From: Syntrophomonadaceae bacterium
GTDB taxonomy: Bacteria > Bacillota > Dethiobacteria > DTU022
Length of the DNA stretch: 64,000 bases
Assembly: GCA_003567725.1 (NCBI GenBank)
Contig: PWYU01000084.1
Span: 28,102-92,101 of the forward strand
Direction: 5' to 3'
Shown: positions 5,084-61,214 of the stretch, in pieces
Layout: each line of letters begins with the position of its first letter
How positions within the stretch are numbered: position 1 is the first letter of the stretch
Position numbers and translations under genes: made by a program
The notes under the pieces: generated by a model
What the model saw: only the letters and a program-made list of their open reading frames with translations
What the model was told of the DNA's origin: nothing
The model's database searches: none

Positions 5084-6361
5084 ATGCATCAGAACAGGCC
5101 CTATGATCTGGAATATATCAGGAATCAGTTCCCAGCCCTTGCCCTTTCGGTTAACAGCTATCCGGCGGCATTTTTTGATGGCCCCGGGGGCACTCAGGTG
5201 CCTCAAAGGGTCCTTGATGCCGTTAACGATTATCTAATTTATAGCAATGCTAATGCCGGTGGTAAATTCTTAACCAGCCACAATTCAGATCTTGTTATCA
5301 AAGAAGCCAGAAAAGCCCTGGCCGATTTTCTGGGAGCCCGTCCTGATGAGATTGCCTTCGGTCAGAACATGACCACCTTGAATTACCAGCTGGCCCTGGC
5401 CCTGACTCGCTGCCCCGGGCAGCGCCGGGAGATTGTGATCACCGAAATAGACCACGAAGCCAACCGGGGCCCCTGGCTGGCTTTAAAAGAGCGGGGCTAT
5501 AAAATCCGTGAGGTCAGGATGGATACGGAGACCTGCACCATTGATATGGATGATTATCGTAACAAGCTTTCTGGAGATACTTTTCTGGTAGCGCTCAATT
5601 ACGCTTCTAACGGTGTGGGCACCATTAACAGTGTGGAAGAAATGATCAGCCTGGCTCATCAGGCCGGGGCTATTACTGTGATTGATGCCGTCCACTATGC
5701 CTTGCACGGCCCGATTGATGTTAAAAAAATTGCTGCCGATTACCTGCTGTGTTCCGCTTATAAATTTTTTGGACCACACATCGGCATTATTTACGGCAAA
5801 AAGGCGCTTTTTTCTGAACTGCCTGCTTACCGGCTCAGAACCCAGTCCGGACTGGCCCCTAATTTGATTGAAACCGGAACCCTCAACCATGAGGGTATAG
5901 CCGGCGCTTCTGAAGCGGTGGAATTTATAGCCGATCTGGGCCGGCGCTTTGGCCCTTCTGATAGTGGTGACGGCCTTTCCGGGAGAAAGGATATGACTGA
6001 GCGGCGCCGCCATGTCTTGTCCGGAATGAAGGCGATGGAGCAGTACGAGCGGCCCCTGGCTGAAAAAATGCTCGATGAGCTTTCTTCAATACAGGGCGTC
6101 CGGGTGTACGGGCCTCCCCGGGATTACCCCCGTACTTCGACCATTTCTTTTACCATTGAAGGCAAAAGGGCAGACCGGGTAGCTTCAGAACTTGGTCAAA
6201 AAGGCCTTTTTGTCTGGGACGGCCATTTTTATGCCATTCGCCTGGTAGAAAAACTGGACCTTCAGGAAAGCGGCGGTCTGATCAGGGCAGGACTTTGCCC
6301 TTATAATACCGAACAAGAAGTGGACCGGCTGCTGGAAGAGATCAAGAGGCTAGCGAAATAA
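5084..6361 (+). CDS. aminotransferase class V / cysteine desulfurase-like PLP enzyme
   Basis: Class V fold motifs including the SAYKFFGP lysine region. Starts 3 nt after the MBL gene stop, suggesting an operon. Confidence 0.7.
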   Translation: MHQNRPYDLEYIRNQFPALALSVNSYPAAFFDGPGGTQVPQRVLDAVNDYLIYSNANAGGKFLTSHNSDLVIKEARKALADFLGARPDEIAFGQNMTTLNYQLALALTRCPGQRREIVITEIDHEANRGPWLALKERGYKIREVRMDTETCTIDMDDYRNKLSGDTFLVALNYASNGVGTINSVEEMISLAHQAGAITVIDAVHYALHGPIDVKKIAADYLLCSAYKFFGPHIGIIYGKKALFSELPAYRLRTQSGLAPNLIETGTLNHEGIAGASEAVEFIADLGRRFGPSDSGDGLSGRKDMTERRRHVLSGMKAMEQYERPLAEKMLDELSSIQGVRVYGPPRDYPRTSTISFTIEGKRADRVASELGQKGLFVWDGHFYAIRLVEKLDLQESGGLIRAGLCPYNTEQEVDRLLEEIKRLAK

Positions 6362-42067: not shown

Positions 42068-42235
42068 TTAAGAACCCCAAAACCCGGGCAGTTTTTTAAC
42101 CACGGCAGTGGCAACAATATGCCCCGCCATCATGCTAACAATCACTAAAAAAATATTCTCAGTGTAATAAGCAGTCAAAGCTATGGCCGCGGTCATTATG
42201 CCAATATACACAATAGAGTGCACCCAATCAGGCAT
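42068..42235 (-). CDS. possible small hydrophobic protein (55 aa; MPDWVHSIVYIGIMTAAIALTAYY...), below the ORF-track size cutoff
   Basis: Own translation of the minus strand: two predicted TM helices. No RBS checked; low support. Confidence 0.2.
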   Translation of the reverse strand: MPDWVHSIVYIGIMTAAIALTAYYTENIFLVIVSMMAGHIVATAVVKKLPGFWGS

Positions 42236-42251
42236 CCATCACTCATCCCCC

Positions 42252-42655
42252 TCCCGGGACACGGGGACAGGTCCCTTGTCCCAGCTTATGTAAACCCGCA
42301 CTGCCAATCATCTTCCGAATTAGATGGCAGCAGGTCTTTTTTAACAATTTAAGAATATAGAGCTCTATTCATTTGTTCCGTTAACTCTATTATAACCTTC
42401 ATTAACGGACCGGATGAATTATTATGGCGGTCAGAAGAAAAGATGGAGTAACGGAGTTCAACCCTGGCCCCCAATACATTCTAACCGGAGGAGATGCATT
42501 GATTGTAATGGGGCATGAAGAGCAGATTAATAAACTGCGTTTCCTTACCGCCGGAGATGAATCTGGGACACGGGGACAGGTCCCTTGTCCCAGATTCATC
42601 TATAGCTAAAAGTTTACATAACCTGGGACAAGGGACCTGTCCCCGTGTCCCAGGT
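42252..42655. mobile_element. MITE-like element: ~43-bp terminal inverted repeats (GGGACACGGGGACAGGTCCCTTGTCCCAG-YTTATGTAAAC) at 42252..42295 and 42612..42655, with a third internal hairpin copy at 42556..42600
   Basis: Copy 3 plus its flank is the exact reverse complement (2 mismatches) of copy 1 plus its flank. Each unit is itself a nested hairpin. Confidence 0.35.
42424..42560 (+). pseudogene. remnant of a TrkA-C (RCK_C) domain: C-terminal half only
   Basis: Translation KDGVTEFNPGPQYILTGGDALIVMGHEEQINKL resembles RCK_C beta-strand/turn consensus. No N-terminal partner and no plausible start context. Confidence 0.3.
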
Positions 42656-42677
42656 TTGGGTCAGCCTCCTACCCGAT

Positions 42678-45356
42678 TTATACTTTTTCCAGGTTAATGG
42701 CGCAAACTTTTAATTCCGGGATGTTTGCTACCGGGTCCAGCTCGGAGTTGGTGAGCTGATTGGCACACGTTTCAGCAAAATGGAAAGTCATAAACACAAT
42801 GCCTTCCTTTAAGTCCGAAACAGGTTTGACTTCAGCTTCGACTTCACCCCGCCTGGAGGTCAGGCGCACCTTATCGTTTTCATTCAAACCCATGCGTTCT
42901 GCGTCTTCCTTGCTGATCAGAGCTTTTTCTACATTGTAAAGATCACTTAACCCATCTGAACGCCGGGTCATGGTCCCGGTATGGTAATGATAAAGTGATC
43001 TGCCGGTGGTGAGAATGAATGGGTAGTCCTGATCGGGAGTTTCAGCCGGGGGCTTATAATCTACCGGCTTAAACTGGGCTTTGCCGCTGCCTGTCAGGAA
43101 TTTTTCTTCATATAGGATCGGTGTGCCCGGGTGGTTTTCGTCCGGGCAGGGCCAGCATATACCGCCTTCTTCGAGCCTTTCGTAGGTGATACCTTTCCAT
43201 TTTGGGCTAAGTTCTGCAACTTCCTGCATAACTTCGCCAGGTTTTTTGAATTCGAATCCTTTCAAGCCTAATTTAAGGCCCAATTTGCAGAGAATTTCAA
43301 AGTCGCTCCTGGCTTCACCCGGAGGATTGATCGCCTTACGGCCCCGCTGGATCCGCCGCTCAGTGTTGACAAATGTGCCGTCTTTTTCGGCGAAAGAAGC
43401 TGCCGGCAGCACGACATCGGCGTAATCTGCAGTTTCTGTGAAGAAAAGATCCTGAACAACAACCAGCTCCAATTTTTCAAGGGCATCCTTGATTTTGCAG
43501 ATGTCTGGTTCACTGACAACGGGGTTTTCACCCATGATATAAACGCCTTTAATTTTATCTTCCAGCGCAGCTTTAAACATCTTGGTCATGGGCATACCCG
43601 GCTTATCGGGGATCTTAGCGCCGTAAGCTTCAGAGAATTTCTGGTTTGCTTCCGGCGAACTTACCGGTTGATAACCGGGGAAGACGTTGGGCAGTGCGCC
43701 CATATCGCAGGCCCCCTGCACGTTATTCTGGCCGCGCAGCGGATTGACGCCGCCGCCTCTTTTACCCATGTTTCCGGTTAAGGTAGCCAGCCCGGCCAGG
43801 GCTAAGACATTGTCCGTGCCGCTGGTGTGCTGGGTGATGCCCATGGTATAAAGAATGGCAGCCGGGTCGCTTCCAGCGTAAATTCTGGCCGCCTGGGTGA
43901 TCTTTTCCGCCGGAACCCCGGTAATATCGGCCATTTCGTTCAAATCGATAGCACGGATTTTTTCGGCATATTCCTCGAACCCTTCGGTCCGGTTTTTGAT
44001 GAATTCAGCATCGTAAAGCTCCTCATCGATAATTACCCTGGCCATGCCCTGCAGCAGGGCGGCGTTGGTTCCCGGTTTAAGCTGGAGGAATACATCTGCT
44101 TTCTCCGCAATCTTGATCCGCCTGGGATCGGCTACGATCAATTTGGCGCCGTTTTTAACGGCCCGTCTGATCCGGTAGCCAATAACGGGGTGAGTTTCAG
44201 TGGTATTGGAACCGATAATGAAAAAGGCTTTCGCTTCATCAGCGATGTCATCAATACTGTTGGTCATCGCGCCACTGCCAAATGTTGTAGCCAGACCGGC
44301 TACAGTCGGCGCGTGTCAGAGACGGGCGCAGTGATCGACGTTGTTTGTGCCAAGAGCCCGGAAGATCTTTTGAAATAGATAATTTTCTTCATTGGAGCAC
44401 CGGGCAGAGCTGATGGCACCTAGGGCGTCGGCGCCGTGTTTTGCTTTGATATCATGCATTTTGTCAGCAATGAAATCTAAAGCTTCATCCCAGGTAGCTT
44501 CTACAAATATGCCATCTTTTTTGATTTTCGGTTTTTTAAGGCGTTCCGGGTGGTTAATAAAATCAAATCCAAAGCGTCCCTTCACGCATAGATCACCGCG
44601 GTTTACCGGGTTGTCACGGTTTCCGTCCACTTTGATTACACGGTCACCGCGCACCCCTATCTTGACCCCGCAGCCTACTCCGCAGTAGGTGCACACGCTT
44701 TCCACCTCGCGCTCTACTAAGGCTGGTTTGGCCAGGTAGAGGGCACCGGTCGGACAGCGCACCAGGCATTCGCCGCAGGATTCACACTTTGAATCTTTAA
44801 GCGGCTTGTCTCCTAAAACAGAAACCCTGGTGTGGAAACCGCGGAAGGCAAAATCAATGGCCGCGACCCCGTTAATCTCTTCGCAGGTGCGAATGCAGAT
44901 TCCGCATAAAATACAGCGTGTAAAATCGCGGTGGAAAAAAGGATTACTGTCATCTGGTTTGACCGCTTCTACCGAGCGGCGAATTTTGCGCATCCGGTCC
45001 TGGTTAATCCCCACAAAAGCGCTCACTTCCTGCAACCTGCAGCTATTGTTCCGCGAACAGCCCTGGCAGTCCTTGTTATGGCTGGCCAGGATCAGCTCCA
45101 CGTTGGTCAAACGGACTTTACGCACTTCCTCCGTATCAGTCTTGACTATCATACCGTCTTTTACCGGGGCCCGGCAGGCGGTAACAATCTTGCCGTCAGC
45201 ATCGACCATACAAATCCGGCAGCCGCCGAAAGTGGGAAGATCAGGGTGATGGCAGAGGGGGGGGATATAGATGCCCGCTTGTTCCGCTGCTTCAAATACG
45301 GTTATTCCCTTTTCGACTTCAATATCTAAACCGTTAATTGTTATTTTTAGCATCAT
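42678..45356 (-). CDS. fdhA: formate dehydrogenase alpha subunit, selenocysteine-containing (NuoG-like 2Fe-2S/4Fe-4S N-terminus plus Mo-bisPGD catalytic domain); in-frame UGA at 44316..44318
   Basis: The two track ORFs 44316..45356 and 42678..44267 are contiguous in frame across a TGA: ...[31 protein letters not shown]..., which aligns with the E. coli FdhF Sec140 region CARV-U-HGPSVAGL...GNGAMSN. Confidence 0.8.
44270..44318 (-). promoter_or_regulatory. bacterial SECIS element: UGA, 11-nt spacer, then hairpin UGUAGCC-GGUCU-GGCUACA
   Basis: Minus-strand mRNA immediately 3' of the UGA forms a 7-bp stem with a GGUC-containing apical loop at the canonical 11-nt spacing. Confidence 0.55.
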
Positions 45357-60483: not shown

Positions 60484-61214
60484 ATGGAAGCGGTCCATGA
60501 AATGCAATTGCAAACAGAAGAAGTGCTTCTCATACTGCCTGGCGAAAACGACGGTTTTTGAAGTAAACCGCTTGATTGAAGCTTTAAATGCTGCAGGAAT
60601 TGATTTTTTCGGAGGTATTTTTCCCGGTATTATATATGATGAAGCGAGATATGACAGTGGAATGATTCTGACTACATAAAGCGCTCCGGCCAAACCCTGC
60701 ATCATCAAGGGATTTTACTTCAGTAGATGAGATTATCCCTGCCATAGAAGATTTACGGGCAGCTGAACAGCTACCGGGATGGTTGTTAAATCTTATTGCG
60801 CCTGGGTGAGCTGGGCATTCTCAAGCTTTATTATCACGATCAAAAAAAGCTTAAACGACCTGGAAGCGATCCATTATGAAGACAGAGCCGCCGTTGCACA
60901 AAGCCTATGCCCGCTACATGATCAATGGAATTTTAAACCAGGAGTTCAGGATAACCCGTCCTGATAATGAGATAAAGTGGGTCTGGGCCCGTTCATTTCC
61001 CGTTAAGGACGATGCCGGCGAGACGATCAGTCATACCGGAATAGTGGTCGATGTTACCGCACGCAAAGAAACGGAGCTGGAGCTGGAACTATCCAGGGAA
61101 AAAGCCGAAGAGGCCAACCGGGCTAAAAGGCAATTTATGGCTAATATGTCTCACGAAATAAGGACTCCTTTCAGCGGTATTTTAAATCTGGCAGGATTAA
61201 ATGCCGGCGGATAG
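60484..61214 (+). pseudogene. decayed sensor histidine kinase (FIST-like N-terminal fragment, PAS/PAC, HisKA H-box MSHEIRTP): at least two frameshifts and truncation before the ATPase domain
   Basis: Three adjacent track ORFs in different frames (60497..60679, 60779..60964, 60876..61214) together read as one PAS-HisKA protein. The last ends 15 aa after the H-box. Confidence 0.5.

Follow-up and report, generated by a model that had tools for sequence, protein, structure and literature searches.

A repeat-bearing spacer downstream of fdhA

The feature under study lies in a 64-kb stretch of DNA (the whole of it is called the window here) between fdhA, which encodes the alpha subunit of a formate dehydrogenase, and a small conserved ORF for a putative membrane protein (Table 1). 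In the direction of minus-strand transcription the order is a NuoF-like gene, fdhA, the repeat feature, the 55-aa ORF and a ferritin gene. The exact ferritin sequence of the window has no entry on record, as a different start was chosen by the gene caller. An in-frame TGA (44316-44318, motif HCARL*HAPTV) interrupts fdhA and is probably read through as selenocysteine. The repeats reach close to the genes on both sides. From the 3' end of fdhA at 42678 it is 21 nt to the extended stem of copy 3, and the Shine-Dalgarno sequence (ribosome-binding site) of the 55-aa gene directly abuts copy 1.

Table 1 Features of the fdhA downstream region, with positions in the window
Feature	Position	Strand	Basis
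Conserved membrane ORF of 55 aa, preceding ferritin	42068..42235	-	present in syntenic relatives; sequence
REP-like copy 1 (singlet)	42256..42282	+	exact 27-nt core; extended inverted-repeat arm 42253-42295
Tail of copy 1, AGCTTATGTAAAC (13 nt)	42283..42295	+	matches the copy 3 3' flank at 12 of 13 nt
AT-rich non-coding remainder of the inserted segment	42296..42405		alignment of the window with the relative L060
TrkA_C (RCK_C) pseudogene remnant	42406..42564	+	PF02080; homology to stand-alone TrkA_C proteins
REP-like copy 2, left member of a tail-to-tail doublet	42565..42591	+	exact core; extended palindrome 42555-42601
Doublet spacer between copies 2 and 3 (33 nt)	42592..42624		ends on the right in GTTTACATAACCT, the copy 3 tail
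REP-like copy 3, right member of the doublet	42625..42651	-	exact core; extended stem 42620-42656
fdhA, formate dehydrogenase alpha subunit	42678..45356	-	Pfam domains; orthologues P0003-P0122

Three exact copies of an identical 27-nt core, GGGACACGGGGACAGGTCCCTTGTCCC, are present in the window, where dinucleotide shuffles give an expectation of 0.00. A degenerate pattern allowing up to three mismatches retrieved no further copy from the same 64 kb. Folding bore out the nested hairpin that an earlier, sequence-only reading had proposed for each unit, in which a bulge separates an outer stem of 6 bp from an inner one of 4-5 bp. The inverted copies described in that reading proved real as well, with slightly corrected coordinates, as the repeat search returned 43-nt arms (42253-42295 and 42612-42654) that are 95% complementary and enclose 316 nt. 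Likewise, the third copy does sit in an extended hairpin. The palindrome 42555-42601 has 20-nt arms (95%), within which GATGAATCTGGGACA and TGTCCCAGATTCATC pair perfectly over 15 nt. With its 9-bp extension copy 2 folds at -35 kcal/mol (z = -7.5), and copies 2 and 3 folded together form a stem of about 36 bp at -75 kcal/mol (z ~ -12).

Two traits of the window copies are peculiar to this locus when they are compared with the repeat family described below. The extra stem extensions, 9 bp in copy 2 and 5 bp in copy 3, are not a family feature, and the 13-nt 3' tail common to copies 1 and 3, AG[C/G]TTATGTAAAC, is local and lies outside the family consensus. This common tail may reflect a local inverted duplication. 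A CRISPR-like array was rejected, because the three copies are unevenly spaced (309 and 60 nt) and do not share one orientation, one being inverted. A tRNA scan gave no hit.

The interior carries the remains of a TrkA_C gene

The sequence-only reading had placed a C-terminal TrkA_C fragment inside the repeats, and this assignment holds. The ORF at 42424-42609 matches the Pfam family TrkA_C (PF02080) with only 22.3 bits (E = 1.3e-4), as against a gathering score of 27, and over profile positions 32-67 of 71, i.e. the last half of the domain. Beyond this weak score, homology to stand-alone TrkA_C proteins supports the identification. This homology begins at the residues RTG and crosses an in-frame TGA (42415-42417) upstream of the ATG of the ORF; the closest stand-alone protein, P0124 (74 aa, 57% identity), reads RTGLIVIAV where the remnant reads RTG*IIMAV. 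The remnant does not contain a complete TrkA_C domain above the gathering score in an intact frame. A search of 1.8 billion representative proteins yielded no close full-length parent of the fragment (best identity 57%), and the window has no TrkA_C paralogue.

The 61-aa ORF itself starts at an internal ATG that is preceded by stop codons. At its other end it reads through into copy 2, because a 20-nt deletion, recognised by alignment of the window with the related contig L060, took away the original stop. The interior, which contains an in-frame stop and lacks its 5' part, is the tail of a pseudogene, and the 61-aa protein P0001, annotated in three metagenome-assembled genomes (MAGs), is an artefact that runs into copy 2.

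Relatives record the gain and decay of the segment

Syntenic loci of relatives were retrieved via FdhA orthologues. Five lineages with FdhA sequences that are 82-89% identical (L056/57, L058/59, L085, L086 and L087/88) have fdhA followed by the ferritin and DUF2284 genes. Gene calling gives the 55-aa ORF in four of these lineages; in L086 it is uncalled yet readable in the spacer. Neither repeat units nor the TrkA_C fragment were found in the post-fdhA spacer of any of the five lineages. Up to the called 55-aa gene this spacer measures 75-296 nt in the relatives, as against 442 nt in the window. Four of the five lineages carry a canonical terminator hairpin, GTTG(C/T)C...GGCAAC followed by a T-run, with the stem variant GTTGTCA...TGACAAC in L086; no terminator hairpin of this type was seen in L085. 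Since units and fragment are absent from all five syntenic lineages, the 442-nt spacer of the window is a lineage-specific replacement. The comparison of these sequences shows that the segment is an acquisition that was gained once and took the place of the terminator-bearing spacer of the relatives.

Two further sequences are more closely related. L060, whose fdhA is 92.4% identical to that of the window, has both the TrkA_C fragment and the doublet. Its ORF retains its own TAA (KEIPG*), which lies within the 20 nt lost from the window. It also has about 200 nt more upstream, and the junction of this second window deletion is near position 42403. Copy 2 of L060 shows a 1-nt deletion and copy 3 three substitutions; the contig stops short of the expected position of copy 1. 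The inserted segment is decaying by deletions, and its decay has gone further in the window than in L060.

The second sequence, L090, has an fdhA that is 97.9% identical to that of L060. Its fdhA stop is separated from the 55-aa gene only by AACAAACCT-GGGACACGGGGACAGGTCCCCGTGTCCC-AGGAGGGG..., and the spacer is about 370 nt shorter than that of the window. GGGACACGGGGACAGGTCCCCGTGTCCC consists of the 5' part of copy 3 and the 3' part of copy 1, joined in the shared GTCCC. This hybrid is a perfect 13+2+13 palindrome and as such unique among all units seen. A perfect palindrome is the expected product of joining two inverted asymmetric units, which supports a deletion. In addition, a neighbour-joining tree has the topology (window,(L060,L090)), so that by parsimony L090 would be the deletion product; the direction, deletion as opposed to insertion, is thus taken from a tree of three taxa. 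An assembly collapse does not account for L090, because its junction k-mers are absent from the long allele. On these alignments the units act as hot spots of recombination or slippage, at which L090 lost everything between copies 3 and 1. The insertion or deletion scar that the sequence-only reading had considered as one option is thereby substantiated: the segment is absent from five syntenic relatives, has decayed beyond its state in L060 in the window, and is deleted in L090. The same reading had called for a comparison of the orthologous locus, and presence/absence polymorphism is indeed seen, but the supposedly empty site of L090 keeps a hybrid unit and is not clean.

The structure of the window is identical in three MAG assemblies, among them GCA_007135065.1 (contig SLJP01000025.1). 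Moreover, a JGI contig from soda-lake sediment (SL_3KL_010_SED; L065) is 100% identical over its 1240 nt and ends at copy 2, which points to a soda-lake origin. An assembly artefact was therefore rejected: three MAGs, and L065 as far as it reaches, have the same structure, and the k-mers of L090 are novel.

These data also bear on two functional readings of the segment. According to the first, the 61-aa ORF would be a functional small TrkA_C-like gene and the repeats its regulatory or terminator elements. In favour of this, two lineages keep the frame open (83% amino-acid identity), and stand-alone TrkA_C proteins of about 70 aa do exist. However, the ORF covers no more than the second half of the domain and its homology crosses the upstream in-frame stop, the C-terminus differs between the lineages owing to the 20-nt deletion and consists of translated repeat in the window, the differences between the window and L060 amount by hand count to about seven non-synonymous versus six synonymous, and the ORF is wholly deleted in L090. 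A functional gene is thus very unlikely. According to the second, the 316-bp segment would be phase-variable, inverting between its 43-bp repeats and switching fdhA or the 55-aa/ferritin genes. Although repeat length and segment size would fit known invertons, a single orientation occurs in every spanning assembly (the three MAGs and the Logan contig L060), with L065 in agreement up to copy 2; the window lacks an invertase or recombinase; no convincing promoter was found inside the 316-bp segment; and the interior is a pseudogene. We consider such a switch extremely improbable.

The units belong to a repeat family that is widespread in Bacillota

A scan for the exact core with one genome per species yielded 52 chromosomal loci (8 kb each), none of which is syntenic with the window. 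They span very diverse Bacillota, with many Bacillaceae among them: Syntrophomonas and other Syntrophomonadaceae, Fredinandcohnia, Mesobacillus, Bacillus spp. and Virgibacillus, and also Aquibacillus, Salinibacillus, Tigheibacillus, Pelosinus, Ruminiclostridium and MAGs of Clostridiaceae. No copies were detected in collections of plasmids, phages and viral contigs. The family consensus comprises about 29 nt, T-GGGACA-NN-GGGACAGGT-NNNNN-GTCCC-A. Conservation is confined to positions -1 to +28, i.e. beyond the core just a T at -1 and an A at +28 are retained. The GGGACAGGT centre and the outer GGGACA...GTCCC are nearly invariant and the 3' side of the inner stem is variable; compensatory covariation in the stems of the family alignment is weak.

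A fuzzy search identified about 175 units within the 52 loci. In Bacillaceae their density is 4.1 per 8-kb locus, with about 12 in one Mesobacillus locus, all of these loci having been chosen for carrying a copy. The genome of the window is low-copy: its 64 kb contain three units, and the loci of its relatives, about 65 kb in all, contain none, so that the term REP in its high-copy sense fits other genomes rather than this one. About 92% of the units in the 52 loci are intergenic, in convergent, divergent and co-directional spacers alike, and their strand relative to the genes is unbiased (45:34). The arrangement of neighbouring units is strict. All 44 inverted pairs not more than 80 nt apart are tail-to-tail and none is head-to-head; tandem pairs within the same distance number 12. 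The spacers of the family doublets range from 4 to 51 nt with a mode of 14 nt. Copies 2 and 3 of the window share the tail-to-tail geometry, with a spacer of 33 nt.

In two Syntrophomonadaceae genomes with an orthologous region of 1.4 kb that is 88% identical, four units are identical at 108 of 108 nt and the doublet spacers differ. Something holds the units uniform, be it selection, conversion or recent re-insertion.

We could not trace a protein partner of the units. All-versus-all clustering of the ORFs from the 52 loci brought up no protein family that recurs beside units across genera, only synteny of close relatives, and neither a RAYT nor another Y1 transposase was found beside units among the window ORFs or, by clustering and inspection, in the 8-kb loci. 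On inspection, the ORFs enclosed by inverted units all resemble common housekeeping genes, and a segment of L002 that has double units at both ends contains no long ORF. As a side effect, the units are a recurrent source of spurious ORF calls, with peptides such as GHGDRSLVP and GQGTCPRVP.

The repeat family appears to be undescribed, as it has no match in Rfam and no sequence match in the literature searched. With Rfam 15, the window and 18 unit-rich loci gave no match at the gathering score, the sub-threshold matches being generic miRNA hairpins. Searching the literature for the unit sequence (GGGACAGGTCCC; GGGACACGGGGACAGG) returned an unrelated primer match only, and nothing was found on RAYT/REPIN in Firmicutes or on REP in Syntrophomonas. 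A survey of REPs that carry a GTAG/CGTC tag does not list the family (PMC3733652), and no such tag, on which the classification of most REPs has relied, is present at the ends of the units, the flank consensus being just one T and one A.

The positions of the units invite the reading that the hairpins are terminators or attenuators of fdhA and of the former TrkA_C gene that were duplicated locally. Stable GC-rich stems do stand directly 3' of two convergent genes, family units in co-directional spacers lie a median of 54 nt from the upstream stop as against 120 nt from the downstream start, and some family copies have T-runs after them. In the window, however, there is no U-tract 3' of any of the three stems and a terminator consensus scan calls none, which also speaks against the earlier suggestion that one copy terminates fdhA. 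Furthermore, units occur in divergent (5'-5') spacers as well and in both orientations, and an identical 27-mer across bacterial classes would be unexpected for terminators that arose independently. Overall, the terminator reading is quite unlikely. A role of the hairpin as a 3'-end structure in the fdhA RNA is conceivable; in this case the hairpin or the doublet in the transcript might protect or pause the 3' end rather than terminate transcription.

Interpretation of the locus

Taken together, the 404-bp feature is probably a cluster of three REP-like units of about 29 nt round a dead TrkA_C gene, and as a whole an insertion scar that is specific to the lineage and decaying. The standard tail-to-tail (REPIN-like) doublet of the family, here copies 2 and 3, sits where fdhA and the dead TrkA_C gene converge with their 3' ends. 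Copy 1, an inverted singlet, lies beyond the remnant.

The sequence-only reading had described a MITE-like element with 43-bp termini. On such a view a non-autonomous element of about 400 bp would have been mobilised in trans by an insertion sequence (IS) and have captured the TrkA_C fragment. Bacterial MITEs such as RUP, Correia/NEMIS, bcr1 and ERIC indeed resemble the feature in their inverted termini, their length of about 400 bp, and their intergenic and non-coding nature, and both the complementarity of the 43-bp arms and the presence/absence polymorphism among relatives would suit such an element. Yet this reading does not hold. The flanks, ...CATCCCCCT on one side and TTTGGGTCAG on the other, contain no direct repeat that could be a target-site duplication. 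A count of the 43-bp unit had been proposed as a check; these termini, which consist of the REP-like unit and its tail (TGTCCCAGNTTATGTAAAC), were found only at this locus (contig L065) among 241 million metagenome records that include the organism's own habitat, and the window has no second whole copy of the element. The suggested search for a cognate enzyme turned up no transposase, recombinase or invertase among the 50 ORFs of the window, nor a parent IS with matching ends there. Finally, the breakpoint in L090 falls within the units, inside the supposed termini and not at their outer ends, and leaves a hybrid unit instead of a clean empty site. Because only about 29 nt are repeated across genomes and the flanks are unconserved, the feature is REP-like rather than MITE-like, and a MITE is highly improbable.

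The family shares much with the REP, BIME and REPIN sequences mobilised by RAYTs in Pseudomonas and E. coli. Both consist of imperfect palindromes of 27-29 nt that are asymmetric through a bulge, both are overwhelmingly intergenic and chromosomal, and both mark hot spots of rearrangement. Both occur singly, as inverted doublets whose short spacers vary, and in small tandem arrays; in some genomes the Bacillota loci carry up to about 12 copies per 8 kb. REP families are usually species- or genus-specific, whereas here an identical 27-mer crosses bacterial classes. Other differences are that the Bacillota doublets are tail-to-tail only, that the 5' loop half GGGACAGGT is more conserved than its stem partner, that no RAYT was found near the units in the window and the 8-kb loci, and that the family is low-copy in the window's own genome. 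Unlike tagged REPs, the Bacillota units lack GTAG/CGTC (PMC3733652). By analogy, the units might spread in the manner of REPs and REPINs, with the help of an enzyme that acts in trans on the single strand and recognises its folded form.

For the loss in L090, the cluster of REP-like units suggests a course that dispenses with a dedicated enzyme. The 43-nt arms would form a stem-loop, whereby the direct repeats (GTCCC) inside the inverted copies meet at the base of the stem. Slippage or misalignment across this stem-loop could then delete the segment and leave one hybrid palindrome. Tn5 and Tn10 undergo precise and near-precise excision independently of transposase by replication slippage across a hairpin. 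In L090, too, the segment between inverted repeats is lost with a junction at a short direct repeat (GTCCC), but here the direct repeats lie inside quasi-palindromic arms, with the result that a new perfect palindrome is generated and the target is not restored.

Alternatively, the units could be sites for a recombinase directed by hairpins or single strands, with the TrkA_C segment as a cassette comparable to attC or Xer-dif modules. As in integron attC and Xer-dif modules, imperfect hairpin sites flank a promoterless insert of gene size. Such sites would account for the L090 junction at the centre of the unit, which regenerates a complete symmetric unit, for the strict geometry of the doublets, and for the strong conservation of the unit sequence across classes and between orthologous loci. 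The tail TTATGTAAAC(T) moreover appears to resemble the XerD arm (half-site) of Bacillus subtilis dif. This dif/XerD reading of the tail was rejected: the 10-mer has only two sites in the window, near-matches are at chance level, and the adjoining sequence on its left is not dif-like and forms no full 28-bp site. In contrast to attC and dif modules, the sites are inverted and not direct, so that a conventional system would give inversion rather than excision; neither an integrase nor a Xer gene or other recombinase is nearby in the window, and no protein family recurs beside units across genera; and the family units lie between housekeeping genes and not in cassette arrays. Since the 5-nt GTCCC microhomology suffices for replication slippage and the hybrid form was seen only once, we regard recombinase sites as unlikely.

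A bolder version of the REP-like cluster would have an undescribed REPIN-like family of Bacillota, conserved across bacterial classes, with tail-to-tail doublets only and with neither a GTAG/CGTC tag nor a known RAYT. Its units would be actively kept identical and would recombine at their centres, and the footprint in L090 would in that case stem from a hairpin-directed excision by a widely conserved enzyme rather than from passive slippage. At present we hold this to be rather unlikely.

For the locus itself the result is mostly corrective: an apparent transposon turns out to be a decaying insertion scar, and a 61-aa "gene" a pseudogene tail plus repeat. The locus appears to be an ordinary kind of object, a REP-like cluster with a pseudogene scar, and the family unusually widespread. 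The repeats remodel the spacer between fdhA and the genes downstream, where the ancestral terminator has been lost, and the comparison with L090 provides a clean natural case of a deletion between inverted quasi-palindromes. Nearly everything known about REP biology comes from work on Proteobacteria. A widespread family of Bacillota with rigid doublets and no obvious RAYT would help to study how such repeats spread and are maintained in Gram-positive bacteria.

The fdhA locus and its neighbourhood

The fdhA reading frame on the minus strand is interrupted by an in-frame TGA within the motif HCARL-TGA-HAPTVAGL. Formate dehydrogenases canonically have selenocysteine at this position, and the TGA is a putative selenocysteine codon. 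In all relatives, gene callers split fdhA into two ORFs of 346 and 529 aa. Directly past the fdhA stop, the window's spacer carries 17 nt (CGGGTAGGAGGCTGACC) that are absent from the relatives' loci L060 and L090, a further small indel within this spacer. The 55-aa two-helix membrane ORF, beginning MPDWVHSIVYIG, had no Pfam match. It is conserved in every syntenic relative, lying between fdhA and the ferritin gene either as a called ORF or as one that can be read from the DNA. Elsewhere in the window lies an apparent fragment of a truncated sensor kinase: a 112-aa ORF that has only the last part of a PAS domain and positions 1-24 of HisKA.

Copies 1 and 3 of the REP-like unit share the tail TTATGTAAAC(T), which appears identical to the arm that XerD binds in the dif site of Bacillus subtilis; a full 28-bp dif-like site is not present at these tails in the window. 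At the matching intergenic position, relatives (L056, L086 and L087) have another hairpin, GTTGTCAGG...CCTGGCAAC, with a T-run behind it; in L086 this hairpin takes the form of two inverted copies of GTTGTCAGGGGGACGGGGTTGTTGACAAC about 100 nt apart. This hairpin is a second palindromic repeat type in the clade of the window, unrelated to the REP-like unit.

Coordinates of features in the window and in other loci
Feature	Locus	Positions	Strand
55-aa membrane ORF	window	42068-42235	minus
Tail of copy 1	window	42286-42296	
Tail of copy 3	window	42611-42621	
Spacer past fdhA stop	window	42657-42677	
fdhA in-frame TGA	window	44316-44318	minus
112-aa ORF	window	60876-61214	plus
Second hairpin type	L086	3173-3619	
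Second hairpin type	L056	6591-6770	
Second hairpin type	L087	2470-2878	
Doublet bracketed by gene-end copies	L004	4300-4470	
Locus compared with L004	L031	1780-1900	reverse
5'-module expansion	L002	5555-5640	
5'-module expansion	L035	1790-1850	
5'-module expansion	L037	400-460	
Masked N runs	L030	~5217-5313; from ~5376	

Units in other Bacillota

In the Bacillaceae loci of Fredinandcohnia and related Bacillus (L007, L009, L013, L019 and L033), a doublet, i.e. two units tail-to-tail, lies in nearly every spacer between housekeeping genes, with the conserved inner spacer AGGAAAAAAATGGT. At these loci, the genes called by ORF finders routinely reach into the units, which gives N-termini such as MVGHGTCPSVP and MGHGDRSLVP. 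Masked N runs directly adjoin a doublet in a Syntrophomonas MAG (L030), so masking may conceal some of the collection's copies.

In L004, two diverged copies (~30 nt) of the 3' end of the neighbouring gene stand on either side of the doublet (CAGATGCGGGGAACGTGCTCGCCTTCCA / CAGATACGGGGAACGTGTTCACCTTCCA), whereas the orthologous L031 locus has its doublet about 20 nt beyond the stop and lacks the duplicated gene end. When the two are compared, the duplication may be a trace of insertion or movement of the doublet. In L002, L035 and L037, the 5' module GGGACACGGGT/C is repeated in partial tandem expansions directly upstream of complete units, a pattern suggestive of slippage within the unit's two direct GGGACA repeats.
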